From a virus (taxonomy: Duplodnaviria > Caudoviricetes), in IMG/VR virus record IMGVR_UViG_2866048730_000001, positions 32,314-96,313 of that record: a stretch of 64,000 nucleotides of DNA; one strand, 5' to 3'. Of the stretch, positions 7,981 to 56,075 are shown piece after piece. The position numbers were made by a program, and so were the translations under genes. The notes beneath the pieces were generated by a model. That model made no database searches. It was not told the DNA's origin and worked only from the letters and a program-made list of their open reading frames with translations. Within the stretch, counting starts at the first letter, position 1, and each line of letters opens with the position of its first letter.

Positions 7981-8601
7981 ATGGCCAGCGACCTGCTGAT
8001 CGAGCGCCTCGACAGCACCGACCCGCGCCACCGAGCGGCGGACCCCTGGACGACCACCTACGCGGTCACCGGCAGGCGGATCACCGGCACCGTCGAGGTC
8101 GCTCCCCGGTTCAACGCACACGGCTGGGAGTTCATGCCGACCGACCTGCACGTGGCCTACGGCTGGGACAAGTACAGCCGCCACGTGGGCACCCTCCACG
8201 TGAACGGCATCCAGCTCGAAGGCGCGCTGCACATGTCCACGAAGACGCCGCCCCGCTGGGCGCTGATCACGATCCGCCGCGTCACGGAGGGTTCGTACGG
8301 CGAAGCCCCTGACGCCACCCAGCGACGCAGCCGGGAGATCCTCCAGGCCGTGGTGCAGGCGCACGTCGAGGACGAGCAGCACGCCTACGAGAAGGCCGCC
8401 CAGTACGCGCGGCACCTGCGGGCTGGTCGCCTCCATGAGCTCCGCGCCAGCGAGCGCGAGGCCCTGCGGGCACTTCGTGAGGCCCAGGCTGCGGTTCGCA
8501 CCGCGAGCGCCCGCATCGACGAGCTCGAAGAGAACTTCGACTGGGTCCTCGGCCTGCATGCACCCCAGCCCACCATCCCGGCCGTGCCGTTGGATGCCTG
8601 A
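7981..8601 (+). CDS. Phage hypothetical protein, C-terminal coiled coil
   Basis: AAGGAG RBS then ATG 7981. Confidence 0.75.
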   Translation: MASDLLIERLDSTDPRHRAADPWTTTYAVTGRRITGTVEVAPRFNAHGWEFMPTDLHVAYGWDKYSRHVGTLHVNGIQLEGALHMSTKTPPRWALITIRRVTEGSYGEAPDATQRRSREILQAVVQAHVEDEQHAYEKAAQYARHLRAGRLHELRASEREALRALREAQAAVRTASARIDELEENFDWVLGLHAPQPTIPAVPLDA

Positions 8602-8616
8602 CCCCAGGAGACAGCA

Positions 8617-9189
8617 GTGACCACCGCGATCAAGATGCCCCGGCTCATCGGACTCTCCGGTCTCGCCCAGTCCGGCAAGGACTCCGCGGCTGGCTTCCTC
8701 GCCGATCAGGGCTGGAAGCGCCGCGCCTTCGCCGACCCGCTCCGCCAGATGCTGTACTCGCTCGACCCGCTCGTGCCCAGCCCGAACGGCGACTGGCCCA
8801 TGCGCCTGCGGGCCGCCATCGACACGCTTGGCTGGGACAAGGCGAAGATCCAGATCCCCGAGGTCCGCGTGCTCCTCCAGCGCCTCGGCACGGATGCCGG
8901 CCGGGCCACCCTCGGCGAGACCGTGTGGGTCGACCAGATGTTCCGTCAGCGGGCCTCGTGGGGGCCGACCGTCATCACCGACTGCCGCTTTCCGAACGAG
9001 GCCGACGCGGTGAAGAAGCACGGCGGCCTGGTCGTCCAGATCGTCCGGCAGAACCAGAAGCTCATCCAGGACTCCGGTCACGTCAGCGAGCAGGCGCTCG
9101 CCGGATATCCCTTCGACGTCACGATCCTGAACAGCGGCACCCTGGCGGAGCTCGGCGACAGCATCCGCGCGGTTGCGGCACGAATGTAA
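8617..9189 (+). CDS. Deoxynucleoside monophosphate kinase
   Basis: IGLSGLAQSGKD P-loop, LLQRLGTDAGR, ITDCRFPNE. Confidence 0.88.
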   Translation: MTTAIKMPRLIGLSGLAQSGKDSAAGFLADQGWKRRAFADPLRQMLYSLDPLVPSPNGDWPMRLRAAIDTLGWDKAKIQIPEVRVLLQRLGTDAGRATLGETVWVDQMFRQRASWGPTVITDCRFPNEADAVKKHGGLVVQIVRQNQKLIQDSGHVSEQALAGYPFDVTILNSGTLAELGDSIRAVAARM

Positions 9190-9225
9190 GAGTTGATTCG
9201 ACCGATCCATCGAGATAGTGTGACT
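9185..9225 (+). promoter_or_regulatory. Promoter overlapped by two operator-like motifs
   Basis: TTGATT-17nt-TAGTGT; same arrangement at 62509-62549. Confidence 0.6.
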
Positions 9226-9245
9226 AGCGAAGAAAGGGGTCCCCC

Positions 9246-9695
9246 TTGACCAGCACAAACACCCTCGTTCGCACCCCTGCGATCCTGGACCAACTGCCCA
9301 TCGGTACGGAGGTCCAGGACTCGGACGGCGACAGCGGGACCAAGACCGCCGACGGCTTCACCGTCCCCGGCTGGAAGACCCCGTTGGACGCCGACTGGTT
9401 CAACTACCCCGTGACCGTCCTCAACCCGACGCCGGCCACCTCCAACCTCGTCGCTGACCTGTCCAGCGAGCTCAACCTGCACACCGTGCTCGAAGAGCTC
9501 CGACAGCTCCTCGACAAAGCCGAGGCGATGTACCAGCGCCAGGACGCCGCGATCGAGGCACTGGCCAGCCGGCCCGGTCTCAACACCGCCAAGATCGAGC
9601 GGCTCGAAGCCCGCTACGACCGCGAGGCCGCCCGGATGCTCGATGAGGTCCTCTCTGTCATCGAGACGCTCACCGACCGCCGGAGCGGCCCGTGA
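9246..9695 (+). CDS. Phage hypothetical protein
   Basis: N-terminal half homologous to 62571-63041. Confidence 0.75.
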   Translation: MTSTNTLVRTPAILDQLPIGTEVQDSDGDSGTKTADGFTVPGWKTPLDADWFNYPVTVLNPTPATSNLVADLSSELNLHTVLEELRQLLDKAEAMYQRQDAAIEALASRPGLNTAKIERLEARYDREAARMLDEVLSVIETLTDRRSGP

Positions 9696-10120
9696 GGCTG
9701 ACGCCCCGCAAGGAGGAAGTCTCCGCGATCAAGGCCGTCCTGGAGTCGCCCGACTTCGACAACGCCGACCAGATGGCCAAGGCGGTCATCAAGGAAGTCG
9801 GCGAGGTCCTCCAGATGCGCGATTGGTACGCCCTCGTCCACACCTGGAAGGACGGCAGCCGCGGCCTGAACTTCGGTCCCTTCGCCAACGAGGCCGAGAT
9901 CAAGACCTTCGCCTCGAAGATCGCCATCGGGGGCACGGGCAAGGTCGTCAAGCTCTACAGCCCCGGCGTCATGCTCGCCAATGTGAACGGCAAGAAGGGC
10001 TGGACCGGCTACTGCCAGGACCCCGACTGCGGCCACGCCCCCGCCAACCACTCTGCCGTGAGCGCCGCTCGCGGTGCCTGCCACATCCCCACCTGCCCCT
10101 GCGGGCAGTTCCGAAAGTAG
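9692..10120 (+). CDS. Phage hypothetical protein with C-terminal Cys/His motif
   Basis: Highly similar to 63038-63466. Confidence 0.85.
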   Translation: MRLTPRKEEVSAIKAVLESPDFDNADQMAKAVIKEVGEVLQMRDWYALVHTWKDGSRGLNFGPFANEAEIKTFASKIAIGGTGKVVKLYSPGVMLANVNGKKGWTGYCQDPDCGHAPANHSAVSAARGACHIPTCPCGQFRK

Positions 10121-10135
10121 ACGGAGGAACCGGCT

Positions 10136-10372
10136 ATGACGGCAAAGACCGTCGACTTCAGGGCCTGCCCGTGCGGGTCGAAGCGCGCCTACGAAGACCC
10201 CCGAGATGCCGCCAAGGCGCTCGGCAAGGCCCAGGCCAAGCGCTCCAGGATCGCCGACCGCCGGGGCACCGGCCGAGGCATCCGCCACGAGAGCCGCACC
10301 TACCAGTGCGACTACGGCATGTACCACCTCACCTCCCAGTCCCGCACCCAGTACCTGGGGGTCGCCGCTTGA
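10136..10372 (+). CDS. Small basic zinc-binding protein
   Basis: CPCG...YQC...HLT; homolog at 63483-63719. Confidence 0.8.
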   Translation: MTAKTVDFRACPCGSKRAYEDPRDAAKALGKAQAKRSRIADRRGTGRGIRHESRTYQCDYGMYHLTSQSRTQYLGVAA

Positions 10373-10629
10373 GCCCCACCGAGGCCGCCCTGGCCAACGG
10401 CTGGAGTTGGGTCCTTGGGGTCAGTGGCGAACAGACCTGCTGCTACCCGGCCGGCACCACGCTGCCGCCGGAGACCGCCGAGGAAGCCCTCGCAGAGATC
10501 GCCTGGCGGCTCGGCCTCGCGCGGCCCGACGTGGAGCAGATCCTCGACCGGATCGACCAGCTCCGCCGCGACTACCGCACCGCTCTCCGCGCCGCCGTCC
10601 TCATCACCCACGGCCCGGACGCCGGATGA
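10369..10629 (+). CDS. Phage hypothetical protein
   Basis: ALANGWxWVLGVSGE shared with 63716-64000. Confidence 0.7.
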   Translation: MSPTEAALANGWSWVLGVSGEQTCCYPAGTTLPPETAEEALAEIAWRLGLARPDVEQILDRIDQLRRDYRTALRAAVLITHGPDAG

Positions 10630-10805
10630 AGGGCGGCAGTAACAGCCTCCTCACCCCGGCCGAAGTCGCCGACTGGCTCAAGGTCAGCGAGATCACCGTC
10701 AAGAACAAGTACCGAACCTGGGGCCTTCCAGCACAGAAGGTCGGCAGGCTGCTGCGCTTTCGCGAGCGCGACATCGTGACCTACCTCGACAGCAGATACG
10801 GGTAG
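10626..10805 (+). CDS. xis: Excisionase (HTH)
   Basis: LLTPAEVADWLKVS...KVGRLLRF; directly upstream of integrase. Confidence 0.85.
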   Translation: MKGGSNSLLTPAEVADWLKVSEITVKNKYRTWGLPAQKVGRLLRFRERDIVTYLDSRYG

Positions 10806-10849
10806 CTCCAAGCAGGCCGCACCGCCCCACCGACACAGAAAGGGGCCAC

Positions 10850-12130
10850 GTGGCCACCGTCTTTCAGCCCTGCAAAGAAGAAGAGCAGGATCGTTTCTAT
10901 CCCTGCACGAAGGCCCGCTGCGGCCACAAGTGGCTCGTCCGCTACCGGGAGCCGGGCGGCCGGTCCGGGAGACAGCGCGAGAAGAGCTTCGCCAAGAAGA
11001 CCGGGCCCGACGGCGCTGACGCCTTCGCCAGCAAGGTCGAGCACGACAAGGGCATGGGCGTCTACCTCGACCCCCAGCGGGGCGCCATCACCCTCCGGGC
11101 CTACGCCAAGGAGTGGCTGGAGCGGCAGATCCTCGCGGAGGGCACCTTCCGGAACTACGAAGGCTTCATCCGAAACCACCTGATACCGCACCTCGGGCGC
11201 AAGACCCTGGCCGGCCTCGCCCAGAGCGACTTCGAGCGGTTCGTCGCCACCCTCCACCGCAAGGGCGAGGGCATGGCCGCCTCGACGATCAACGACCGCA
11301 TGAACATCCCGATCGCGATGCTCGAAGCGGCGATCGTCGAGAAGCGCATCTCCGAGAACCCGGCCAAGGGCGTCAAGATCCCCCGGACGAGCAGTATCGC
11401 CGTCGACGAGGACGAGATCCCCACCCTCGAAGAAGTCGATCTCCTCGGCAAGCACATCTCCCCGCAGTACCGCCTGACGGTCTACCTCATGGCGGGGGCC
11501 GGGCTACGGCCAAGCGAAGCTCTCGCCTTCGCCTGTGAATGCCGCCGCACCGAGTTCATTCGAATCCGCTGGCAGGTCAGCGCGAAGGCGAGCCGCGGCG
11601 ACAGCCGAACCAGGTTCGTTCCGCTGAAGCACCGCGCGGAAGGCGAGTACCGGGATATCCCGATCGCCCCGTTCCTGGACGAGGAGATCGACGCCCACGA
11701 GGAGCAGTGGGCGCCCATCCCGGTCGCCTTCAAGGACAAGGCTGGTAAGGACAGGGAGCTCGAAGTCTTCTTCGCCCCGCGCGAGCGGGGCAAGGGCACC
11801 ATGCCCACGGCCAACACCTTCGGCTACCACTTCAAGAAGGCATGCATCGCGGCCGGGCTCGTCGACTCGAACGGCAAGCCGAAGTACACCCCGCACGCTC
11901 TGCGACATTTCTTCGCCTCGACCGCCCTCGCGAACGGAATTCCTATCCACGAGGTCTCCCGATGGCTCGGACACAAGTCCATCAAGATCACCGTGGACAC
12001 CTACGGACACCTCGTCCCGGGTGCCTGGCACCGCTGCCGCGAGGTCATGCAGGCCGCCATGCGGCCGGTACCGTTGGACCTGGATCGGCCGGCACCCGGC
12101 GGTGCCGACGACTACGGCCCTGCCGCGTAG
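10850..12130 (+). CDS. int: Tyrosine integrase
   Basis: GLRPSE, HALRH, LGH and TYGH catalytic motifs. Confidence 0.95.
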   Translation: MATVFQPCKEEEQDRFYPCTKARCGHKWLVRYREPGGRSGRQREKSFAKKTGPDGADAFASKVEHDKGMGVYLDPQRGAITLRAYAKEWLERQILAEGTFRNYEGFIRNHLIPHLGRKTLAGLAQSDFERFVATLHRKGEGMAASTINDRMNIPIAMLEAAIVEKRISENPAKGVKIPRTSSIAVDEDEIPTLEEVDLLGKHISPQYRLTVYLMAGAGLRPSEALAFACECRRTEFIRIRWQVSAKASRGDSRTRFVPLKHRAEGEYRDIPIAPFLDEEIDAHEEQWAPIPVAFKDKAGKDRELEVFFAPRERGKGTMPTANTFGYHFKKACIAAGLVDSNGKPKYTPHALRHFFASTALANGIPIHEVSRWLGHKSIKITVDTYGHLVPGAWHRCREVMQAAMRPVPLDLDRPAPGGADDYGPAA

Positions 12131-12402
12131 CTGTGCTGACCTGTTCCGACGGTGCTGATTCCGTGCTGACTTGGACCCTCAGAATTGACGTTTCTGCAGG
12201 TCACAGCGTTGTGGTGGAAGTTCCGCTTCAACGTGTGATGAGTGACATAGCACGCCACTCCTGATCTGGCAAACGCGCAGGTCAGAGGGGGTCCCTCCCT
12301 TCGGGGGTGGACCCCCTTTTCATTCCCGTGCTGACTTGGTGCTGACCTGGAAGCACCCCCCATCACCCCCCAGAACCCCTTCCGTGCTGACTTGGTGCTG
12401 AC
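12131..12402 (+). other. attP-like junction: core duplicating the ychF 3' end, flanked by arm-type repeats
   Basis: TTCCGCTTCAACGTGTGA (12221-12238) = FRFNV*; TGCTGA(C/T) repeats at 12134, 12153/12164, 12329/12340, 12385/12396. Confidence 0.75.
12286..12320 (+). terminator. Intrinsic terminator after the att core
   Basis: AGGGGGTCC...TTCG...GGACCCCCT followed by T run. Confidence 0.7.
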
Positions 12403-12434
12403 CATCCGAACGGGTGATGGGCGCGGCGCTGACC

Positions 12435-12731
12435 TCAGCGGGGCTTTCGGTGTCGGCCCGTGCCTGGCGCCAGCGGCTGTCGCGCTGGGCTCGGCGTAGT
12501 CGAGGGGGACGTCTGGGCCTCGGGGTACAGGATGCGCTTGGCCTCTGCGAGGCTGGCCGCGAAGGCGTACGGCTCCCAGGAGTAGCCGTTCCATCGCTCG
12601 ATGGCCCGCGGGGCGTCGGGGTTCAGGTGCGCCCCTCTGGGGCCGTCGCCGGTGACGATGGGGACAGCGCGAAGCCGGCCGATCTTCGCTTCACGGCGCT
12701 CCGCCCACTCCTCCAGTGGCTCGTCGTTCAT
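12435..12731 (-). CDS. DUF6087-like protein
   Basis: DEPLEEWA...HLNPDAPRAIERWNG pattern recalled from Streptomyces proteins. Confidence 0.6.
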   Translation of the reverse strand: MNDEPLEEWAERREAKIGRLRAVPIVTGDGPRGAHLNPDAPRAIERWNGYSWEPYAFAASLAEAKRILYPEAQTSPSTTPSPARQPLAPGTGRHRKPR

Positions 12732-12740
12732 CCTGCCAAC

Positions 12741-13118
12741 CTAGTGGTCCCCGAGCCCTGTGACGGGCTGTCCGGTGAGACGCTGGGCGATCTGCCAGAG
12801 CATGCCGCCTCGTGAGGCTTTCATGAGCACCTTGTCGCCGGGCACGAGGATCTTTTCCAGGAAGTCGGCGGCGGTCTCGTTGTCAGCAACGAGGGCAAGG
12901 TTGGGTACGCCGGCCGCGCCCGCGTGGAGGACGAGTTGCTTCACGTTGGGGCTGTTGCCGACACCGAGCAGGATCTCGACTCCTTGCTCGGCTGCGTAGC
13001 GCCCGATCTCGCGATGGGCCTCAAGCGAGTCGTCGCCCAGTTCGAGCATCTCTCCGAGTACGGCGATCGTCCGGCCGCCGTCGGCCGGGCGCGTTCCGCC
13101 GTCTGCCTCGGTCATCAA
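12741..13118 (-). CDS. Stand-alone MurF-like C-terminal (peptide-binding) domain
   Basis: AVLGEMLELG...H..IG...KASRG; no ATP-binding domain. Confidence 0.8.
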   Translation of the reverse strand: MMTEADGGTRPADGGRTIAVLGEMLELGDDSLEAHREIGRYAAEQGVEILLGVGNSPNVKQLVLHAGAAGVPNLALVADNETAADFLEKILVPGDKVLMKASRGGMLWQIAQRLTGQPVTGLGDH

Positions 13119-13660
13119 GAGTCTCCGTTGTTTAGGGGCGCGAAGGTGATCGCGCGTCCGGTGTATGAGTGGGAGAGGCGACTGAGCGGTACCTGGTCGT
13201 TCTCCTGGCCCCAGGCCGATGGGTCGCGGAAGTGGATGGTTGGGTCCGGGCCGCTCTCGTAGCCGCGAAGGATGACGAGGTGCCCGCCCTTGCGGCCGTC
13301 CTCGGGGAATTGCTCGGTCACGGACACGATGAGCGGAGCGTCGTCGAGGCGGCCGAGCAGACCTTCAACGGGGACGGCTTCCGCCTGGGAGTGAATTCCG
13401 AGCTCGGTCGCCAGGTTCGCGATCCCCGCGTGAAGCGCTCCACGCGGGGTCAAAACCTCGTGCTTTACGGCGAGCTTCAGGAGTTCCGTCACCGTTGGTG
13501 CCTCGCACCCGTAGGCCAGCAAAACCATTCTCAGTGACGCCAGGCCGCACGCCCGGTTGGACCACTCGATCCTGTCTCCCAGTGCCCATCCTCCGTGGTG
13601 ATCCCATTCGGCGGGGGTGATGAGCTGTCGGCACATGGGGACTTCGTGGGCGCGCGGCAC
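13115..13660 (-). CDS. C39-like cysteine peptidase
   Basis: Q...ACGLASLRM, GHLVILRGY, FRDP triad layout. Confidence 0.8.
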   Translation of the reverse strand: MPRAHEVPMCRQLITPAEWDHHGGWALGDRIEWSNRACGLASLRMVLLAYGCEAPTVTELLKLAVKHEVLTPRGALHAGIANLATELGIHSQAEAVPVEGLLGRLDDAPLIVSVTEQFPEDGRKGGHLVILRGYESGPDPTIHFRDPSAWGQENDQVPLSRLSHSYTGRAITFAPLNNGDS

Positions 13661-13673
13661 AGTGGCATTGCTC

Positions 13674-14765
13674 CTACAGGGAGACGGCAGCCTCCCGCGT
13701 CACCGTGGTGCTGGAGAACACGGGAGTGGGCAGGGGGACATCGTACGGCGGCCGGGCCAGGGCCTCATGAAGCATCGCCAGCACGACATCCGTGTGCGTG
13801 AGCCCGACCATCGCCGCCCCGACCGCGAAGTTGCTGTCACGGGACATGCCCGGCGTGCTGTTGACCTCCAGCACGTACGCGTCGCCTTCCTCGGTGACGA
13901 TGAAGTCGATGCGGGCCGAGCCGCGTAGTCCGATCCCATCCCACAGCGTCCGGGCATCCCTGGCGATCCGGTTCATCGCTACGGGCTCCAGCTCGGCGCT
14001 TCGGACGGTGACGGCGCCCTTCGAGTCCACGTCGAGCTTGGTGTCGGCGTCGTAGAACTCGGCATCGGTCGCCTCGGTGGTCAGCGGCGGGAAGACGATC
14101 ACCGAGCCGCCCGGAAGCTCCAGCATTCCCACGGTCACGGGGGTACCGACGATGTAGTCCTCGACGAGCACCTCGTCACCGCTTTCGCCAGCGGCCTCCG
14201 ATAGGGCGCGGGGCAGGTTGGCCGCGTCGCGGACGAGGCTCATGCCCACGCTGGACCCGCCGAAGGGCGGCTTCACCATGACGTCCCGGGTGCCCCAGTT
14301 CACCGGCCCGCCGGACCAGACGCGCCAACCGGGCGTCGGGACGCCGAGGGTCAGCATGACCCGCTTGCAGAGGATCTTGTCAGCGGCCACCGCGGATGCC
14401 TGTACCCCGCTGCCGCAGTAGGGCACGCGAAGGTAGTCGAGCAGGCCCTGAAGACGACCGTCCTCACCGTAGGGGCCGTGCAGGTTCGAGAGGGCCACGT
14501 CGTACGAGACCAGCTCCCTGATGAAGTCGGGCTGGGTGGGGTCCAGCACGTTCCACCGCGCGCCGAGCTCTTCGAGGGCCTCGCCCAGCGCGGTCACGGA
14601 TCGCTGCTCGACTGGGCACTCGGAGTGGTAGAGCCTGTCTTCGGCGGACACCGGTCCGTAAATGAGGGCGACGCCGAGGCCCTGCCGGCCTCGCCCCCAC
14701 TCGCGGAGTTTCTCGGCGGCGTTCTGCGCCGCTTGCTTCGAGGTCGAGTCGAGAAAGACGGTCAT
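13674..14765 (-). CDS. ddl: D-Ala-D-Ala ligase-like ATP-grasp protein
   Basis: LHGPYGEDGRLQG, KPPFGGSSVG, ARIDF, LEVNSTPG. Confidence 0.9.
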   Translation of the reverse strand: MTVFLDSTSKQAAQNAAEKLREWGRGRQGLGVALIYGPVSAEDRLYHSECPVEQRSVTALGEALEELGARWNVLDPTQPDFIRELVSYDVALSNLHGPYGEDGRLQGLLDYLRVPYCGSGVQASAVAADKILCKRVMLTLGVPTPGWRVWSGGPVNWGTRDVMVKPPFGGSSVGMSLVRDAANLPRALSEAAGESGDEVLVEDYIVGTPVTVGMLELPGGSVIVFPPLTTEATDAEFYDADTKLDVDSKGAVTVRSAELEPVAMNRIARDARTLWDGIGLRGSARIDFIVTEEGDAYVLEVNSTPGMSRDSNFAVGAAMVGLTHTDVVLAMLHEALARPPYDVPLPTPVFSSTTVTREAAVSL

Positions 14766-15562
14766 GCGTATACCCCTTCGAAGGTCTGGGTGACCGGTCC
14801 GCCAACCCAGGCGGCCCGTTCCGGGCGGTCGTGGTGCGGGCGGACGGTGAGCGGTTCACCGGCCCGGTTGTGAACGGTGACCTCGCGCTTGGCGACGAGG
14901 CCGCGCATGGTGGCGACGACAACGGCTGCGACGGCCCCGCTGCCGCAGGAGAGCGTCTCGGCTTCGACACCGCGTTCGTAGGTGCGGATCTTGAGTGCCT
15001 GGCGGCCGAGGCGCTGGACGAAGTTGACGTTCGTGCCGATCGGCGCCACGTTCTTGTGGTGCCGAACGACTCGGCCGACCACTTCCGCGTGGATGGCGTC
15101 CACGTCGTCCACGACGGCGACGACGTGTTCCGTGCCGGTGTGCGCGCTGTCGAACCACGTTGGCCTGCCGTTGATGATCGTCTGTAAGACGCGGGGCTCG
15201 ATGGCGCCCACTTCGGCTGTGACCCATACGGAGTTGGTGTCGACGGTTGCCTCGTGCAGGACACCTGCCATGCGAAGCTGCATCGTCCGGAAGCCCTGAT
15301 CGCACTGGGCTGCCCACGCCGCACAGCGCAGCGCGTTGCCGCACATCGTGGCGACCGAGCCGTCCGCGTTGAAGCAGTCGACTTCGAGAACGGTCGGCTC
15401 ATCGCTGACCCGGCTGCTGATGACAAGGCCGTCCGCACCGATGCCAGTACGTCTGGCGCAGAGGCGTTCGGCCTCCTTCGGCCACTCCCTTTTGTCGGCC
15501 GGGCCGAGGTCGGTAAGCAGGACGAAGTCGTTGCCGGCCCCGTGAATCTTGCGGAAGCGCAT
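14762..15562 (-). CDS. dapF: Diaminopimelate epimerase
   Basis: HGAGNDF, GADG, NADGS..MCGN, ERG..ETLSCGSG; both catalytic Cys present. Confidence 0.92.
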   Translation of the reverse strand: MRFRKIHGAGNDFVLLTDLGPADKREWPKEAERLCARRTGIGADGLVISSRVSDEPTVLEVDCFNADGSVATMCGNALRCAAWAAQCDQGFRTMQLRMAGVLHEATVDTNSVWVTAEVGAIEPRVLQTIINGRPTWFDSAHTGTEHVVAVVDDVDAIHAEVVGRVVRHHKNVAPIGTNVNFVQRLGRQALKIRTYERGVEAETLSCGSGAVAAVVVATMRGLVAKREVTVHNRAGEPLTVRPHHDRPERAAWVGGPVTQTFEGVYA

Positions 15563-15622: not shown

Positions 15623-15871
15623 TCAGAGAAGTTCGAGGGGCCGGTAGATAGTCCGGGGCTCGCGCATGATCACCGGGGCGCGCCCGGTGAAGTGCAGGAC
15701 GCGGTGGGCTGATGTGCCGGCGGCCCTCATGTCCCGGACTCGCTGGAACGCTCCATCGAGGTACAGGAAGTCGCCTATGCGCACATCGCCCGGCGGCCTG
15801 TTCCGCTGCTCGACTGTCCCGACAGGGGGAGTCGGCTTGGCTTGCAATTCCCCAGCCTTGCGCTTGTGCAT
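15623..15871 (-). CDS. Hypothetical protein
   Basis: TGATG-coupled chain on the minus strand. Confidence 0.6.
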   Translation of the reverse strand: MHKRKAGELQAKPTPPVGTVEQRNRPPGDVRIGDFLYLDGAFQRVRDMRAAGTSAHRVLHFTGRAPVIMREPRTIYRPLELL

Positions 15872-15957
15872 CAGCCCCTCCAGATGGCGTAGAGGAGGGT
15901 GCCGCCGAGCATCACAAGGCTGGCAAGGTAGGTGAGTTGTTCGTTTCGGGGGCTCAT
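15871..15957 (-). CDS. 28-aa single-pass membrane peptide
   Basis: MSPRNEQLTYLASLVMLGGTLLYAIWRG; 1-nt stop/start overlaps on both sides. Confidence 0.55.
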   Translation of the reverse strand: MSPRNEQLTYLASLVMLGGTLLYAIWRG

Positions 15958-16496
15958 CAGGTTCCGATCAGGAGGCTCTCCAGACGGCCGCGGAGCGGCG
16001 GCATGCTGACTTCGGACAGCGGCACCCAGGCCGCCGCGCCCGCTTCCAGCACCGACGAGCGCACGGCGCTTGCGTGTGCCCGGAAGAGGTAACGAATGCC
16101 GACCCGGAGGCGGGGGCCATACGCGTGCTGACTCGCGGGCGTCACGTCGACCAGGAAGGGGCCTTCGTTTCCGGGTTGCGTCCACACGTCCCGGATGCCG
16201 ACCTCCTCGACCAGCAGGCGGAGGGCCGCCTCGCTGAGTGAGTCGTCCTGATCCTCCGGCTCGGCCTCCGCGAGGGCGTAGCCGCCCTGGTGCCGCAGGC
16301 ACAGGACGCGGTCCCGCTCGTCGACGACGACGGCCGCCGTCATCACGAGCGGACAGCGCTGGTCGTGCGTGCAGGCTTGGCGCCGCGAGTGGTCGAGGGC
16401 GGCGTCGTACACCGGCATCAACGCCATCTGGTCGCCGGGGTGTTCGTGGAGATAGTGGGAGAGCTCCCGGATGATCTGGTCTTCCTTGACGCTCAT
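15957..16496 (-). CDS. NUDIX-fold protein with degenerate Nudix box
   Basis: TAAVVVDERDRVL...SLSEAALRLLVEEVGI. Confidence 0.75.
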   Translation of the reverse strand: MSVKEDQIIRELSHYLHEHPGDQMALMPVYDAALDHSRRQACTHDQRCPLVMTAAVVVDERDRVLCLRHQGGYALAEAEPEDQDDSLSEAALRLLVEEVGIRDVWTQPGNEGPFLVDVTPASQHAYGPRLRVGIRYLFRAHASAVRSSVLEAGAAAWVPLSEVSMPPLRGRLESLLIGT

Positions 16497-16876
16497 GGCG
16501 CGCCCAGCCCGTTGCGCTCGGTGTAGACCCAGAGCAGCCGCCGCGTGAGCGTAGCGACGTCCCGGGCGTAGAGCCACGCCCCGAAGGTCGGCGTCTCTGC
16601 GGTCGGGCGCTCCTTGGAGTCGATCAGGGTAAGACCCTTGCGGACGAGCTGCTGAACCTCGGCGTCCTCGTCCGCCCCCAGGTCCTGGTCGAGCAGGAGG
16701 TTCAGGTGTTGGACGACTGCCGGCGTGACCTCGTCGATGTCCTCGCGGGTCGTGGACCCCATCCGCATCGCGAGGATCGAATCCGTGCGTAAGGAAATTC
16801 CTTCGGTGTCGACGGGGGGATTCTCGGCCGATTCCTCGGCCGCCCCCAACGCCTTGCCGGTACTTGCCAAAGCCAT
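16493..16876 (-). CDS. DUF6415-like protein
   Basis: Size, helical pattern and position downstream of an XRE/DUF5753 module. Confidence 0.5.
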   Translation of the reverse strand: MALASTGKALGAAEESAENPPVDTEGISLRTDSILAMRMGSTTREDIDEVTPAVVQHLNLLLDQDLGADEDAEVQQLVRKGLTLIDSKERPTAETPTFGAWLYARDVATLTRRLLWVYTERNGLGAP

Positions 16877-17030: not shown

Positions 17031-17873
17031 TCACCCGAACGATTCGATGGCAGTGGTGATTATTTCCCGAGCAGCCGAGCCGAACACGGCCATCTCGTAA
17101 AGCTCGGCAAAGGTCTGTGCATACATGCGGAGTTCAGGCTCCTGCTCGACCGTAAGGTGGGCTGAGACGAGTTCGACTTTGACTGTGTGGTCGTCGAACA
17201 TGAAGAAGCCTTCGACGGGCATGAGCGGTCGCTCGATGTGGCGGGGAATGATCCCGATAGCCACTCTGGGGAGGGCCATGGCGCTGAGCAGGTAGCCGAG
17301 TTGGCCAACCATCACATCGGGGCCGCCCATCCGGTTGTAGAGGGCGCTCTCCTCCAAGAGGATGGCGAATGTGCGCTGCGTGTATACGATCTTCTGTTTT
17401 TCAAGGCGGACCTCAACAGCCGCGTCGACATCGTCGATCGTGTTGCGACGGTCGCGGATGGAGGTCAGCAACGCCTTGATGTAGGAGGCCGTCTGCACCG
17501 GTCCAGGGATCAGCCACGGCGAGTAAAAGCGGAACTGCTGAGTCCGATCCCAAAGGGGAAGGGCTGACTGTTGGGCCTGCTTGAGCCCGCCGCTCTCCAA
17601 CTGTTGCCACTGGACGTACATGCCCTCGATGCGGCGGGCAGTCTGGACGAGAAGGTCCGCTTGGTCCTCAGCACCGCATGCGCTGCACCATTCGCGAAGA
17701 TCGCGCTCCGAGGGCGCGCGTTTGGCGCTCTCGAAGCGCGATGCTTTCGATTCGTGCCACTCCAGTTTTTCAGAAAGGGCTCGCTTGGTGAGTCCGGCCG
17801 CAACCCGGATCTCTGCGAGGCGTTTCCCGAGCGCCTTGCGTGCTTCCTGGGCGCTCGAAGATGCCGATTCCAT
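17031..17873 (-). CDS. XRE-family HTH regulator with DUF5753-type domain
   Basis: LGKRLAEIRVAAGLT...SRFES; IPGPVQTASY; LLEESALY..MGG. Confidence 0.85.
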   Translation of the reverse strand: MESASSSAQEARKALGKRLAEIRVAAGLTKRALSEKLEWHESKASRFESAKRAPSERDLREWCSACGAEDQADLLVQTARRIEGMYVQWQQLESGGLKQAQQSALPLWDRTQQFRFYSPWLIPGPVQTASYIKALLTSIRDRRNTIDDVDAAVEVRLEKQKIVYTQRTFAILLEESALYNRMGGPDVMVGQLGYLLSAMALPRVAIGIIPRHIERPLMPVEGFFMFDDHTVKVELVSAHLTVEQEPELRMYAQTFAELYEMAVFGSAAREIITTAIESFG

Positions 17874-17899: not shown

Positions 17900-18412
17900 C
17901 TAGCGGGCTTCGAACTCGGCATGCGGGATCGCCCTGCGCCAGATGGCATCGAAGGCCGACTCGCAGAGCTTCGCGATCTCCGGGTCTTCGGTGATCTCGG
18001 GCTCTGTGGGTTCGCCTTCGCCGTCGAAGTGGTTCAGGTACAGCAGCCGGGAGTCGAACAGCCAGAAGTCATTGCCCGGCACGAGTAGATCCGAAGCGTT
18101 CCGCCGAGGGAGCCACCGCACCTGCTCGCCCGCCGCGATGTTGAGCCCCTCGGTCACCTCGTGCTCGAAGCGGATGTACTCGCTCACAGGCGTCGAGACG
18201 ATGCGCGCTCGACGCACCTCGACACCTCGCGAGACCGCCTCCGAGACGATCGAGTGCCATGCGGACCAGCGCTCAGCCGGGTCGATCTGCCTGCCGGCCT
18301 TCCAGTCGACGAAGGTCGAGTGCGTCTTGCTGTAGGCGTCGCGGGCTTCCAGGTGGACGGCTGTCCGCTGGCAGTCGCGGAACAGCTCTTTAAACGTCGG
18401 GGGATTCGACAC
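17900..18412 (-). CDS. DUF6879-like protein
   Basis: AVHLEARDAY, RRARIVSTPVSEYIRFE, NDFWLFD. Confidence 0.8.
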   Translation of the reverse strand: MSNPPTFKELFRDCQRTAVHLEARDAYSKTHSTFVDWKAGRQIDPAERWSAWHSIVSEAVSRGVEVRRARIVSTPVSEYIRFEHEVTEGLNIAAGEQVRWLPRRNASDLLVPGNDFWLFDSRLLYLNHFDGEGEPTEPEITEDPEIAKLCESAFDAIWRRAIPHAEFEAR

Positions 18413-18659
18413 CCTTCTCCACCTCCGGCTCGGTGTCCTTGGTAGCGGCCTCCCTGTCCTCTGCCAGGAAGAACTGCGCCATATAGCGGGGAATCTCCAC
18501 CGCCCCCTCGTGCGGGGGGAGGTTCAGCTGCTTGAGCCGCTCCTCGTCCAGGACCTTGAACCCCTGGACGAGGTACCTGTCGGTCTCGTCGTCCACGTAG
18601 ATCGTAGGCGAGTTGCCGTCAGGGCTGTTGGGGTCCTTACCGAGCATGCGCAGGGCCAT
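18390..18659 (-). CDS. Small conserved protein of the DUF6879/XRE module
   Basis: GGAGG RBS; GKDPNSPDGNSPTIY...YLVQG. Confidence 0.75.
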   Translation of the reverse strand: MALRMLGKDPNSPDGNSPTIYVDDETDRYLVQGFKVLDEERLKQLNLPPHEGAVEIPRYMAQFFLAEDREAATKDTEPEVEKGVESPDV

Positions 18660-18689
18660 GATGTCCTCCTCGGATGCGGGTGATGCTTC

Positions 18690-18750
18690 CCATGCCAGAG
18701 CTTGCCCCCGCCCCCGTTGGAACGCGAGGAACTTGCCCGAACTTGCCAGC
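18690..18750 (-). repeat. Phased TGCC repeats upstream of the regulator operon
   Basis: TGCC pairs at 18693/18703 and 18734/18744. Confidence 0.55.
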
Positions 18751-18859
18751 ACTTCACGGGCGACTGTAGGTGCGCGGAGGAGCGGGGGACGAGAAGTCGA
18801 TCAGCCGTTCGCGGAGCGCTGGATTGGCCGAATTGGACTGATCGACTTCGCGTCCAGGG

Positions 18860-35108: not shown

Positions 35109-38100
35109 TCACCACCCCACCATTCGTGCGCGGTGGGACGCCGCGAACAGCTCCTCCTGGGAGCTGAGCGAACTTCCCGCCGCTGCGTAGTAGTTGAGAA
35201 CCTTGGTCACGCCGCCGCCCCCAGTGGGGCCGAGACCGCCTGCGATGGCGGCGGACGCCGACCGCGCCGCGTTGGCGTAGTCGGCGGAGCTGGGGCGAGC
35301 GGTAATGGCGTCGACCGCCTTGGCCACCCGCCCGGATTCGCCCTCGATGCCCTGGGCGAAGCCCTGGCCGACGTAGCTGCCGAGCTGGGCGAAGACGCGG
35401 CTCGGCGAGTGGATGCCGAGGCTCTTCTTGATGGCGGCCACCATCGAGTCGGCGATCTGGAGCATCTGCTTCTCGATCGCCGCTTGCTGGCTCTGGAGGC
35501 CCTTCACGATGCCCTCGGCTATGTGGACGCCGTTGGCGTACATCGCATCCGAGGCGGTCGCTCCGGCCTGACTGGCGTACTTGGCGAGTTCGGCCTGAAG
35601 ACGGTTGACCTCGGCGATGCCGTTCTTGCCGGCCGCCGCGATCGACTCCGCCGCAGCCAGGCCCGCATCGGGTCCGGCCGAAGCGATCTGGTCCATGGCC
35701 GTCTGGCCAAGGCCCATGTCCTTCAGCTTCTTGAGCGCGGTGGCGAACCGTTTCGCCTTGTCGATGGCCGCCTGAAGGGCGCTCGTGATCCCGTTGAAGG
35801 AGGAGCTCTTCGCCTTGGTCACATCGCCGGTGTCGATGATCCGGTCCGTGACCCGCTGCGCGTAGGAGGCTGCTTCCTCGCGCATCTTGTCGAGCTTGTC
35901 GCGGGCGGCCTTGAGCCGGTCGGCCCCGGTGTCCCACTGGGCAGCCAGCTTGAGCATGGCGGTCCGGTCGGCGTTGATCCGGTTCTTCAGGCCCTGGGAG
36001 GCGTCGTTCGGGATCTTCTCCGTCAGCTCATTGAGGGCTTCCTTGACGCTGGAGAACTCCGACTCCAGACCCTTGACGAGGCCCTGGATGATGAGCCGTC
36101 CGGCGTCGTACAGCAGCACCGCGTCCTTGGGGGCCGGGCCCTTCCAGTCCGTGAGCTTGCTGGTCAGATCGCCGAGCTTGTCCTTCACCGCGCCGAACAT
36201 CGACGAGATGCCGCTGATGAGGCCGCGGATGAGCGACTTACCGGCGTCGACGAGCGTGGAGCCGAGGCCGCTCAGCGCGTCCTTAGCCTTGCCGGGCAGT
36301 TCCTTGACGAAGCCGATCGTCTCGGTGATGCCGGTCGAGATGGCGCGGCCGAGGGCGGACATCGCCCTACTGGCGACGTCCTTGATCGCTGACCATCCGG
36401 CCGAGAACAGGCTGCCGAGCCCGGACATCATCGAGCGGCCGAGGTCGGCGAGGAACGAACCAAAGGAACTGAAGCCCGACTTGATCGCGCTCCACGCGGC
36501 CTCGCCGAATCCCTTGACGGCCTGCCAGCCGGACTTGAAGGCTGCGCCGATGGCTTTGAGGCCCTTGCCAGCCGCGCCGAGGATGCCGATGCTCAGGAAT
36601 GTCTCGAAGGCTCCGAGGATCGTGTCCCAGATGCCCTTGACGAAGCTCCAGATGCCGGACCAGAACTGCGACCAGCCCTCCTTCAGGGTGCCGAAGTTTC
36701 CGGTGAAGAGCCCTTCGATCAGGCCCCACGCGATCTTCAGGACGCCGACGATGGTGTCCCAGACACCCTTGACGATCTCGACGAGTCCCTCGAAGACGAG
36801 TGCGACGCCGTTGACGGCGTCTACCAGGCTCTTGGCCAGCAGCTCGACGATGAACTGGATGACCGGCACGAGGACGGGCATCAAGATGTTGACGACCTTG
36901 AGCAGGGCGTCGAACACCGGCTGGAGTGCTTCGAGCAGGCGCTGAATCGCGTCAGCCAGCGGCGGAAGAACCGACTGGATGACCTCGCTCAGCATCGGCA
37001 GGAGCGGCTGGATGACCGCCGTGATGATCTGAAGCGCGGTAGCGATGATCGGCTGGAGTGCCGTGAGCACCTGCTGAAGGGCCGCCGACAGCACGGGCAG
37101 GATCGGCGCCAGCGCGGATGCCAGGGTCGAGACGAGCGGTGCGAGCGCGGCGAAGATCTGCGCGAAGAGCTGCGCGATGATCGGCAGGATCGGCGCGAGC
37201 GCGCTCACGAGCTGGGCGATGACCGGAGCCATCGCCGTGACGATCTGCCCGAACGCTTCCGCGATGGTCGGCAGGACGCCGCTCAGCGTCTGGAAGGCAC
37301 TGTTGAGCGCCTGGCCGATCACCGGAACGAGCTGCGTGAGGACGGGCGCGAGGGTCTGGATCGCCTGCGTCAGCGCACCGCCGAGGAGCTGGATGATCGG
37401 GGTGATCGAGGGGGCGAGCGCCGTGAACGCGTTCGCCAGCGGGACCAGTGCGGCTGCGATCAGCGGACCGAGCATTGCGGCGAACGCGCCGATCACCTGC
37501 ATCAGCGCGCCGAGTGCCTGGCCGAGCGGGGCCATCGCCGGGGCGAGCGCTTCGACAGCGGCCTGGATGCCGCTGAACATCGCCTTGACGCCCTCGGTCA
37601 CAGCTGGCTGCGCCAGTGCCGAGGCGACCGCGTCCAGGGCGGTGCCGATGACCTCGCCGACTTGCGGCAGGAGCTCGGTCAGGAGCTGCCCAAGCTCCGA
37701 GAAGAGGTTCTTGACCGCCGGGCCCGACTGGGTGGCGATGGCGTTCATCGCCGTGTGGGCTGCGGCAAAGACGTTGGTCAGGCCGGTCTGGAAGCCCTCG
37801 CTGTCCACGGTCGCGTGGATCTTTTCGAGGGTGTCGGCCATCATGCCGAGCGAGGAGCCGCCCGCAGCTTCGGCTGCGCGACTGATGCCGGCAAGAATCC
37901 CGCCGACGTTGTAGAGGACCGACCCCAGATCCTTGAGGGATTGGATTCCCTCGTCGATCCAGCCCTTGAGCTTGCCGTTCCCCTCGCTCTTGGTGAGGAA
38001 GGCGGAGAAGCGCTCCGAGATGTCGACAAACCACTGGGCCAGCGACGGCAGATAGCTCGTGCCGACCTTGCCGAGGACGGCGATGATGTTCGCGAAGGCG

Positions 38101-39206
38101 CCCGTACCGTTGGTGGCGATGTCGATCGACTTGGAAAGGTCGACGAACATCTGGTTCAGCGCGGGGTCCAGGGCGCCCTGGAGGCCCTTGGCGAAGGCGC
38201 CGAAGAACTGGCCGAGCTCGGTGGCCGTCTGCCGGACGCCCGCCGTGAACTTCGGGAGGAGGCCATCGACGAGCTCCTGAATGGGCTTCTTGGCCTGCTC
38301 CCAGAACTTCGCCGAGATCGCGTCCTGGAGACCGGACAGGGCACCCTTGACCTCGGGTAGAACCTTGTTGAAGTCGCGGAAGGCCGCGATGGTGACACCG
38401 AGGCCGACCGCCATGCCGCCGAACAGGCCGGGCAGGAGAAGGCTCGTGGCGCCGATCGAGGCGAGAGAGCTCGACAGGGCGGCGAGGTTGCTCGCGGCAG
38501 ACAGGCCCCACCCAGCGAGGCCGGCAATCGCGAGGGAAAGCGAGCCGATGATCGGCACGCTCTTGTCGAGGTTGCGCAGCGTCCGACCGAGCCGCTCGAA
38601 GATGTTGTTCAGCACTCGCGCGCCGGACAGAGCGGCGAGCGCAGTGCCGACCTTCGCCACGGCCGTGTTGTCCAGGTCGGGGACGATCGGCACCGTGCGC
38701 GGACGGGTCAGCACCTGAAGCCGGGCCGAGATCCGCGCGCCGAACCCGTTGGCGAGGTCCGGCTCGACCTTGATTTTCAGCGGGCTGATGTCGTCGGCCC
38801 AGTCGCGCAGCTTGCGCTTCACGTGGTCGGCGGACTGCTCGTCGAGCTCCAGCTCGACCTTGCCCGTGGTTTTGAGGTCGTTGACCTTGAAGTCAACCTT
38901 CTGGCTGTTCGCCCGGCGCTGTAGCTCCTTGGCGGCGTTCCGTACGGCGGTCGCCATGCCATCGGTGGAGATGGTCGTGTAGAAGCGGATCTTGCGGGCG
39001 TCGGACTGCTTGTTGCGCTTGTTGATCTTCCGGAGCTCTTCGACGAACTCCTTCGACGCGCCGCTCATGTCGATCGTCGTCGACACCTTGAGCTTGTCGA
39101 GCTGCTGCTCGATACGGTCGAGCTGCTTCTCCGCATCCCGCCTGAATTCACGGGTGTCGGGGGAGACCTTGACGGCGACACGGCCGATGATCTGGCCCGC
39201 TGACAA
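35109..39206 (-). CDS. Tape measure protein
   Basis: 1365 aa, Ala/Leu/Gly-rich repeats, LGIHSPSRVF. Confidence 0.95.
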   Translation of the reverse strand: MSAGQIIGRVAVKVSPDTREFRRDAEKQLDRIEQQLDKLKVSTTIDMSGASKEFVEELRKINKRNKQSDARKIRFYTTISTDGMATAVRNAAKELQRRANSQKVDFKVNDLKTTGKVELELDEQSADHVKRKLRDWADDISPLKIKVEPDLANGFGARISARLQVLTRPRTVPIVPDLDNTAVAKVGTALAALSGARVLNNIFERLGRTLRNLDKSVPIIGSLSLAIAGLAGWGLSAASNLAALSSSLASIGATSLLLPGLFGGMAVGLGVTIAAFRDFNKVLPEVKGALSGLQDAISAKFWEQAKKPIQELVDGLLPKFTAGVRQTATELGQFFGAFAKGLQGALDPALNQMFVDLSKSIDIATNGTGAFANIIAVLGKVGTSYLPSLAQWFVDISERFSAFLTKSEGNGKLKGWIDEGIQSLKDLGSVLYNVGGILAGISRAAEAAGGSSLGMMADTLEKIHATVDSEGFQTGLTNVFAAAHTAMNAIATQSGPAVKNLFSELGQLLTELLPQVGEVIGTALDAVASALAQPAVTEGVKAMFSGIQAAVEALAPAMAPLGQALGALMQVIGAFAAMLGPLIAAALVPLANAFTALAPSITPIIQLLGGALTQAIQTLAPVLTQLVPVIGQALNSAFQTLSGVLPTIAEAFGQIVTAMAPVIAQLVSALAPILPIIAQLFAQIFAALAPLVSTLASALAPILPVLSAALQQVLTALQPIIATALQIITAVIQPLLPMLSEVIQSVLPPLADAIQRLLEALQPVFDALLKVVNILMPVLVPVIQFIVELLAKSLVDAVNGVALVFEGLVEIVKGVWDTIVGVLKIAWGLIEGLFTGNFGTLKEGWSQFWSGIWSFVKGIWDTILGAFETFLSIGILGAAGKGLKAIGAAFKSGWQAVKGFGEAAWSAIKSGFSSFGSFLADLGRSMMSGLGSLFSAGWSAIKDVASRAMSALGRAISTGITETIGFVKELPGKAKDALSGLGSTLVDAGKSLIRGLISGISSMFGAVKDKLGDLTSKLTDWKGPAPKDAVLLYDAGRLIIQGLVKGLESEFSSVKEALNELTEKIPNDASQGLKNRINADRTAMLKLAAQWDTGADRLKAARDKLDKMREEAASYAQRVTDRIIDTGDVTKAKSSSFNGITSALQAAIDKAKRFATALKKLKDMGLGQTAMDQIASAGPDAGLAAAESIAAAGKNGIAEVNRLQAELAKYASQAGATASDAMYANGVHIAEGIVKGLQSQQAAIEKQMLQIADSMVAAIKKSLGIHSPSRVFAQLGSYVGQGFAQGIEGESGRVAKAVDAITARPSSADYANAARSASAAIAGGLGPTGGGGVTKVLNYYAAAGSSLSSQEELFAASHRARMVGW

Positions 39207-56012: not shown

Positions 56013-56075
56013 GGCGAAACCTCCGAAAGGAGGTCGGCGGGAGGCGGTCCCTCCCCCCTGACGATGCCAGCCCGC
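56013..56075 (+). ncRNA. Type II hammerhead ribozyme HH7 (extra U)
   Basis: GGC-GAAA-CCUCC(GAAA)GGAGG-UC, cut after 56035-bulged stem I-CUGACGA-U-GCC. Confidence 0.85.

Follow-up and report, generated by a model that had tools for sequence, protein, structure and literature searches.

The stretch of DNA analysed here, referred to as the window, is 64,000 nt long and comprises positions 32,314 to 96,313 of the IMG/VR record IMGVR_UViG_2866048730_000001 (Caudoviricetes). Between positions 12741 and 15562 it holds a block of four minus-strand genes, all of them real, which encode a DapF-type epimerase, a Ddl-like ligase, a C39-like peptidase and a C-terminal fragment of MurF (MurFc), and which we call the wall cassette. 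The first-pass annotation of the window had described these genes as tightly coupled, and their coordinates were confirmed: DapF overlaps Ddl and C39 overlaps MurFc by 4 nt each, with a gap of just 13 nt between Ddl and C39. The GC content at third codon positions (GC3) is 0.79–0.89 in the four enzyme frames. That annotation had also proposed a gene-neighbourhood search for the set. A scan with the C39-like protein, which returned 80 loci and is the basis for the module counts given below, found the four genes to be co-conserved, with the order DapF-Ddl-C39-MurF(c) kept in at least 66 loci and under different regulators. Given this conserved order, the co-occurrence of the enzyme set is well beyond chance.

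Median pairwise ratios of non-synonymous to synonymous substitution rates (dN/dS) are 0.18 for MurFc, 0.18 for C39, 0.24 for DapF and 0.27 for Ddl; all values for the module were taken at dS of about 0.5–0.9, those of the four enzymes at about 0.6–0.7. Purifying selection thus acts on every gene of the module. The cassette enzymes are 34–38% identical to the counterparts encoded by the genome itself, so that an origin as recent duplicates of host genes was rejected.

The ligase belongs to the short DdlB type, shares 34% identity with the Ddl that the genome itself encodes, and scores below every NCBIfam cutoff for Ddl (the best being NF002378, 190.4 bits against 243) and far below those of the NCBIfam models for Van ligases. 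Its catalytic ATP-grasp residues and the site for the first D-alanine (D-Ala1), equivalent to E15, S150, K215, R255, D257, E270 and N272, are invariant in 79 of 79 sequences, and the equivalents of S151 and S281 are also kept. The pocket for the second substrate (D-Ala2) is altered: Y216 of DdlB, in the omega loop, is replaced by L in 77 of the 79 cassette ligases, and L282, which we take to be the other determinant of D-Ala2 (R322 in VanC2), is replaced by N in all 79. At the same two positions, Y and M are found in the genome's own Ddl and Y and L in a solved Ddl structure. S150 together with Y216 marks ligases that make only D-Ala-D-Ala, and changes at these positions alter specificity and give depsipeptide activity (PMC7691350). 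The smaller or polar residues introduced by Y216L and L282N would be compatible with a bulkier, polar D-residue as the second substrate.

The epimerase is a full-length DapF, matching TIGR00652 over residues 1–265 with 190.6 bits (cutoff 114.65), and is 35–38% identical to the genome's two other DapF-like genes. Both catalytic cysteines, already noted in the first-pass annotation, are present as C74 and C206 (C73 and C217 equivalents) and are invariant in 77 of 77 sequences. Among the residues that we take, from DapF structures, to contact diaminopimelate (DAP), namely N11, N64, N75, N157, N190, E208 and R209, the equivalents of N11, N64, N75, N190, E208 and R209 are invariant in the cassette alignment; N157 is taken up below.

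The C39-like protein exceeds the Peptidase_C39_2 cutoff (33.8 bits against 24), and its residues Q12, C38, H127 and D146 are invariant in 88 of 88 sequences. The AlphaFold2 (AF2) model has a predicted local distance difference test score (pLDDT) of 92, and its top Foldseek matches are C39 double-glycine peptidase domains (template modelling scores of about 0.65/0.82), followed by phytochelatin-synthase-like proteins, papain-like toxins and the pseudomurein endoisopeptidase PeiR; a search of the ESM Atlas returned only clusters named 'C39 family'. No signal peptide was seen on inspection of the protein, domain searches found no transporter within the ten-gene module described below, and no gene for a double-glycine precursor was seen. 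The C39-like gene persists alone, with only a stub of the ligase, in several genomes, Planomonospora among them (L070, L079, L082, L078, L087, L095); the cassette may have decayed there, or the peptidase may have a role of its own.

MurFc scores 60 bits against the MurF model TIGR01143 (cutoff 288.6) and covers only about 105 C-terminal residues. As had been observed from the reading frame in the first pass, it is thus only the C-terminal domain of MurF, and the ATP-binding middle domain is missing. The origin of this protein becomes clear from a second, older form of the cassette, in which a full-length MurF stands after DapF, Ddl and C39 and exceeds the cutoff of the same model with 428–434 bits. 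Alignment to this long-form MurF shows that the short protein (113–125 amino acids) consists of the first ~15 residues joined in frame to the final ~105, an internal in-frame deletion having taken out the N-terminal and ATP-binding domains together with the first strand of the C-domain. In a quick tree of the ligases, the 65 short-form rows form one clade (Shimodaira-Hasegawa-like approximate likelihood ratio test, SH-aLRT, 95) that is nested among the long forms, and the simplest account would be that one single MurF deletion lies behind all short forms. MurFc has the conserved motifs R.IAVLGEM.ELG and KASRGG.LWQ, the C-terminal one being its own, and its AF2 model (pLDDT 87) is a four-stranded alpha/beta fold that superposes on MurF C-domains with 1.6–2.7 Å over ~105 residues (Foldseek). 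The purifying selection on the gene, its own motif and its predicted fold argue against debris: MurFc is a selected, derived protein, neither the original design nor junk.

The functional unit extends beyond the four enzyme genes, upstream to about 18.66 kb, and comprises ten genes on one strand (Table 1). Domain searches gave no family match for the 82-aa protein. The NUDIX-like protein probably has a degenerate catalytic box, as RE is changed to RL in 53 of 54 sequences and the second E of EE is retained in 31 of 54. For the DUF6879 protein, the literature search found no paper mentioning the family, and the ESM Atlas gave nothing over chance. The small protein at the upstream end is called as 75–76 amino acids in two of the loci (L001, L002). 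Two open reading frames (ORFs), 15871–16302 and 18524–18757, were considered as genes and rejected as wrong-frame shadows (GC3 0.56 and 0.67); that they still match relatives by tblastn is because the DNA is conserved. A promoter scan found no sigma-70-like site, a search that is uninformative in Streptomyces.

Table 1. Positions of the ten-gene module and of other features in the window
Feature	Position	Strand	Remarks
MurFc, 125-aa MurF remnant	12741..13118	-	Mur_ligase_C 35.5 bits
Stand-alone cytoplasmic C39-like papain-fold cysteine peptidase, 181 aa	13115..13660	-	Pfam Peptidase_C39_2 + C39
Ddl-family ATP-grasp ligase with altered second-substrate pocket (K-L / S-N type)	13674..14765	-	Pfam Dala_Dala_lig_C/N
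DapF-type two-cysteine epimerase	14762..15562	-	TIGR00652
82-aa conserved protein	15623..15871	-	GC3 0.80; in 53-56 loci; dN/dS 0.32
Divergent NUDIX-like protein, 179 aa	15957..16496	-	NUDIX 22.1 bits vs cutoff 21.1; frame by GC3; dN/dS 0.27
127-aa protein, weakly DUF6415-like (E=0.015, below cutoff)	16493..16876	-	In 56-57 loci; dN/dS 0.42
XRE-family HTH_31 + DUF5753 regulator (WhiJ-like)	17031..17873	-	In 60-62 loci; dN/dS 0.14
DUF6879 protein	17900..18412	-	PF21806 191 bits; in 63-64 loci; dN/dS 0.15
Small conserved protein, ~75-90 aa	18390..18659	-	Start uncertain, ORF open to 18752; GC3 0.83; ~60 loci
Non-coding hybrid att junction between prophages A and B	12131..12740		600-nt gap without coding GC3 signal
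~52-nt GC-rich repeats	1144-1195, 2053-2104, 4270-4321, 7900-7951, 56013-56064		

The window holds two tandem prophages (A, 1–12430; B, 12430–64000), each of ~53 kb, R4-like and inserted at the 3' end of ychF. Megablast gave 75–78% identity to the Streptomyces phages Loofah, Paedore, R4 and others across the region from replication to endolysin, and the early operon of prophage A (80–10000) is repeated at 52.4–63.3 kb with 70–80% identity. A tyrosine integrase (10850–12130) closes prophage A; that of prophage B lies just beyond the end of the window and is 84% identical to it. The attachment (att) site, beside which the cassette had been placed from the beginning, could be identified in the gap between the prophages. 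The left part of this junction (12152–12236) matches the sequence following the integrase of prophage B (locus L144), and its right part (12219–12403) matches the left end of prophage A beside ychF (locus L145) with 86% identity over 185 nt. As the gap is a hybrid of the B-integrase arm and the A left-end arm (together 12152–12403), the wall cassette, at a distance of ~340 nt from the att arm, is the cargo that comes first in prophage B. The equivalent slot in prophage A (L145:18026–19166) carries other genes, among them one for a clear NUDIX hydrolase (60.7 bits) and one that is AAA_28/thymidylate-kinase-like, so that the att-proximal cargo differs between the two prophages. The genome holds a single copy of the wall cassette. 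The ~52-nt GC-rich repeats listed in Table 1, with the core GAAAC...CTGA(C/T)GA, lie between early-operon genes of both prophages, and a tandem repeat of 87 nt (70% identity, 37096–37269) was noticed within a 1365-aa gene (35109–39206) for the probable tape measure protein.

The first-pass annotation had regarded the block as a prophage cassette of repurposed enzymes. As a one-off event this does not stand, for the cassette is widespread, mobile and older than the prophage, occurring in Streptomyces, Kitasatospora, Actinacidiphila, Kribbellaceae, Nocardia and Actinocorallia. The ligase forms more than 100 clusters at 55–95% identity in Streptomyces, Kitasatospora, Actinacidiphila and Actinocorallia, with a sporadic presence (of 300 species genomes sampled from the family, only 7 have it). 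About 55 of the 80 loci share the whole ten-gene module in one order (the short form), and ~15 have the long form, which is without the XRE/DUF6879 block and is hosted by Streptomyces, Actinacidiphila, Kribbellaceae, Nocardia, Actinocorallia and Spongiactinospora; in two Actinocorallia loci, a MurC-like ligase is added.

At least three different regulator blocks accompany the enzymes. One is the XRE/DUF6879 set, another a divergent NsdA-family tetratricopeptide repeat (TPR) regulator, and a third pairs an HD gene with a 378-aa helix-turn-helix (HTH) gene, together with an HATPase_c_2 protein. Even within the short form the two halves are mosaic, L044 being 89–98% identical to the window in the left and 65–84% in the right half and L020 showing the reverse. 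Similarity that is limited to one half of the module points to recombination between the regulatory and enzymatic halves. In the same mosaic comparison, L016 and L017 group with L020 against L044, the similarities of the enzyme half and the regulatory half being opposite.

At least 40 unrelated types of flank were found among 76 loci. In 7–9 loci the same R4-like prophage genes adjoin the cassette, and in one (L098) it lies in another prophage, flanked by capsid and tail genes. Elsewhere, defence-type genes are found directly beside it (L002:15707–19601; L096:15019–20439; L097:6246–7436): a cyclic-oligonucleotide-based antiphage signalling system (CBASS; SMODS, Cap2-like E2/ThiF, SAVED), an OLD-TOPRIM and UvrD pair, a caspase/EACC1 pair and a Cap4 nuclease. 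A NACHT gene is also among the neighbours. Other contexts examined contain conjugation genes or ordinary chromosomal genes. A few loci carry decayed copies, with a frameshifted Ddl or DapF or with only a remnant of C39 (L021, L085, L070, L079, L082). In the INPHARED phage collection, tblastn with the ligase gave matches of just 25–36% identity in non-Streptomyces records, several of which are annotated as ddlB or D-ala D-ala ligase, and scans of IMG/VR with C39 and ligase patterns returned no relative of the cassette.

A core of the cassette is found far beyond the actinomycetes. A profile search yielded 538 representative relatives of the C39-like protein, and the contexts of distant members (C39-like identities of 25–54%) and of 42 metagenomic loci were studied. 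In 22 of 45 loci, a Ddl-family gene lies directly upstream of the C39-like gene, a MurF-like gene directly downstream, or both, and most of the distant ligases share the signature K-L (or I/M/Q) ... (S/G)-N. DapF was not found in these loci. From the association of ligase and C39-like gene in such distant loci, with a shared signature, it follows that the pair of K-L/N ligase and C39-like peptidase, often with MurF, is ancient. DapF was added in the actinomycetes, and one Streptomyces lineage cut MurF down and gained the XRE block. In a group of distant metagenomic loci (L100–L102; L100/L101:672–8259), a Ddl of the K-L/N type and the C39-like protein are combined with a further ATP-grasp ligase, a His_Phos enzyme, a permease for amino acids, a major facilitator superfamily (MFS) transporter and a YqcI/cupin protein, in what looks like a small-peptide biosynthetic cluster.

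Of several possible explanations for this combination of genes, the one we tentatively favour, while stopping short of calling it probable, is that this mobile cassette provides an alternative dipeptide branch for the synthesis of peptidoglycan precursors, similar to Van systems and making D-Ala-D-X. In such a branch, the DapF-type epimerase would boost the supply of a D-configured substrate. Streptomyces walls contain LL-DAP, and our best guess for the substrate is meso-DAP formed from this pool. If one candidate is to be named for X where the wall has LL-DAP, as in Streptomyces, it would be the D-centre of meso-DAP, because DapF adjoins the ligase. With its D-Ala1 and ATP machinery intact and its D-Ala2 pocket altered, the ligase would form D-Ala-D-X and not D-Ala-D-Ala. 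The cytoplasmic C39-like peptidase would clear the competing normal dipeptide or trim normal precursors, as VanX or VanXY do. A dedicated MurF would put the new dipeptide on the UDP-N-acetylmuramyl-tripeptide (UDP-MurNAc-tripeptide). In the short form, this loading would be done by the host MurF, and MurFc, which is translationally coupled to the peptidase, may serve as a dipeptide-binding helper or adaptor. The cassette would be expressed in the lysogen from its att-proximal slot, under its own XRE/DUF5753-DUF6879 control. As an outcome, the D-Ala-D-Ala terminus of the lysogen's wall precursors would be changed, resulting in altered sensitivity to agents that recognise or target this terminus.

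VanC logic consists of a racemase, a ligase and a D,D-peptidase (PMC4790382). The VanC, VanE and VanG operons (VanT, the VanC D-Ala:D-Ser ligase and VanXYc) resemble the cassette in combining a supplier of a D-substrate with a pocket-changed Ddl-family ligase and a cytoplasmic peptidase, and in being mobile and accessory (PMC4790382). They differ from it in each component: the cassette epimerase is of the DapF type, independent of pyridoxal phosphate (PLP), and not a PLP serine racemase like VanT; its peptidase is a papain-fold cysteine enzyme and not a zinc enzyme like VanX or VanY; its ligase pocket has L and N. VanRS is absent, and domain searches of the ten-gene module detected no VanT, VanXYc or VanRS domain, so that the likeness is one of logic only. 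A parallel to the long form, with its alternative ligase paired with its own MurF, is murF2, the extra murF of vanHAX clusters in glycopeptide-producing actinomycetes. The cassette lacks homologues of VanH and VanX, however, and the form in the window has only the C-terminal fragment of MurF. A mention of murF2 is found in PMC4790382.

The housekeeping D-Ala-D-Ala branch (Ddl and MurF, with DapF in the lysine/DAP pathway) uses the same enzyme families and catalytic residues, and the cassette is set apart from it by its short DdlB-type ligase below all Ddl cutoffs, with Y216L and L282N. To our knowledge, dcw genes are never clustered with a cysteine peptidase, whereas the cassette enzymes are. 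The peptidase itself is structurally closest to the C39 domains that process bacteriocins (ComA, PCAT1, LahT), with which it shares the Gln-Cys-His-Asp active site; unlike these N-terminal domains of ABC transporters, which act on double-glycine leader peptides, it is stand-alone and soluble, and always adjoins a Ddl-family ligase. The gene set is under no PADLOC model, Pfam or NCBIfam system name or paper found. In PADLOC-DB 2.0, nine of the ten module proteins have no match, weak hits are confined to the regulator's HTH, and no system is called; a literature search on DapF, Ddl and MurF combined with mobile elements or defence yielded nothing relevant. The statement in the first-pass annotation that this combination is not a described system has thus held.

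A VanC-like dipeptide branch is the most economical reading, within which we infer the substrate, the roles of the peptidase and of the fragment, and the phenotype. Several observations weigh against it. X itself is guesswork: nearly all of the presumed DAP contacts persist in the epimerase, but N157 is T in 77 of 77 sequences and P158 is E in 75 of 77 (E or D overall). DapF is also present in cassettes of the meso-DAP genera Nocardia and Actinocorallia, where an extra supply seems needless, and this weakens the meso-DAP guess. The C39-like peptidase is a cysteine enzyme without a known D,D-peptidase relative, its nearest folds cleaving leader peptides or gamma-glutamyl bonds, and the module is without a VanS-like membrane sensor. 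Most Streptomyces cassettes are without a catalytic MurF, so that they do not themselves encode the step that would build the dipeptide into the wall. Finally, the distant Ddl-C39 loci in which a further ATP-grasp ligase occurs along with a permease and an MFS exporter look more like the production of a metabolite.

This last point leads to the other alternative raised from the sequence at the outset, a small D-amino-acid peptide; together with remodelling of the stem peptide it remains a leading biochemical reading, even if we consider it unlikely. Here, epimerase and ligase would produce a free D-amino-acid dipeptide (e.g. a DAP-containing antimetabolite or signal), none of which enters the wall, with the C39-like protein as a hydrolase for maturation or self-protection, or as a transpeptidase, and the MurF fragment binding the dipeptide. 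Such a pathway would accommodate the short-form cassettes without catalytic MurF, the L100–L102 loci, which pair the same ligase type and a C39-like gene with a second ATP-grasp ligase, permease, MFS transporter and His_Phos, the phytochelatin-synthase-like transpeptidases among the nearest folds of the peptidase, and the match of the cassette DapF to 7vdy, a DapF homologue that acts as a racemase in D-cycloserine biosynthesis. It is difficult to reconcile with a Streptomyces module that has no transporter or other tailoring gene, with the repeated linkage of a model-passing MurF in the older actinobacterial form and of MurF in many distant loci, and with the fully conserved D-Ala1 site of the ligase.

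A role in anti-phage defence or superinfection exclusion concerns the purpose of the cassette and is compatible with the biochemistry that we favour. Induced by infection via cytoplasmic regulators, the cassette would perturb or re-route precursor synthesis and so block adsorption, lysis or growth, by abortive infection or by a change of receptor or lysin target. Its location could be taken to suggest this, in an att-proximal slot here and in 7–9 related prophages, in the structural block of another prophage, and beside CBASS, the OLD/UvrD pair, the Cap4 nuclease, the caspase-like gene and the NACHT gene, as could its sporadic presence (7 of 300 family genomes), its many flank types (at least 40 among 76 loci) and the swapping of its regulator blocks. 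Resistance and metabolic cargo use such islands too, however, and many copies are in an ordinary chromosomal context; no PADLOC model matches the cassette proteins, and neither the INPHARED phages nor the IMG/VR contigs yielded the cassette. We rate defence as a purpose with low confidence. Still less can be said for a bypass of the D-cycloserine type or a mere increase in precursor supply, an improbable explanation in which the ligase would make D-Ala-D-Ala, being either insensitive to the drug or an additional copy, and the other genes would only support flux. D-cycloserine is a Streptomyces product, which counts in its favour. Ddl variants on integron cassettes confer high D-cycloserine resistance, but in these S150 and Y216 are retained and D-Ala-D-Ala is the sole product (PMC7691350), whereas the family described here has lost Y216 and L282 throughout. 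Support of flux would also leave the cysteine peptidase, the selected truncated MurF and the invariant pocket changes unexplained. That the genes are functionless, decaying leftovers of captured host wall genes is hardly credible. The truncated MurF and the few loci with frameshifted Ddl or DapF or with a C39 remnant may give this impression, which is contradicted by dN/dS of 0.18–0.27 at dS of ~0.6–0.7 for all four genes, by invariant catalytic residues and by a gene order kept in at least 66 loci.

Returning to the dipeptide branch, a bolder extension of it may be stated, which we regard as doubtful. K-L/N ligases and their C39-like partners may constitute an undescribed, phylum-spanning system that ends the stem peptide in a non-canonical residue (in actinomycetes possibly the D-centre of meso-DAP, via the cassette DapF) and that has been spread by prophages and defence islands as a protection from phages or wall-targeting antibiotics; the MurF fragment would then be an adaptor of a new type, bringing substrate to a cysteine D,D-peptidase.

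MurFc is a clear example of an enzyme that has been deleted while its residual domain is kept under selection. If the proposed dipeptide branch is real, the cassette would represent a second, evolutionarily independent reprogramming of the D-Ala-D-Ala end of wall precursors, by a route in which a two-cysteine epimerase works with a cysteine peptidase and a new subfamily of Ddl, and which is already mobile on prophages and islands of antibiotic-producing soil bacteria. It would then bear on the sources of glycopeptide- or D-cycloserine-type resistance, on the role of the unexplained Ddl and MurF paralogues beside C39-like genes in other phyla, and on the benefit that Streptomyces lysogens may draw from the cargo of their prophages.

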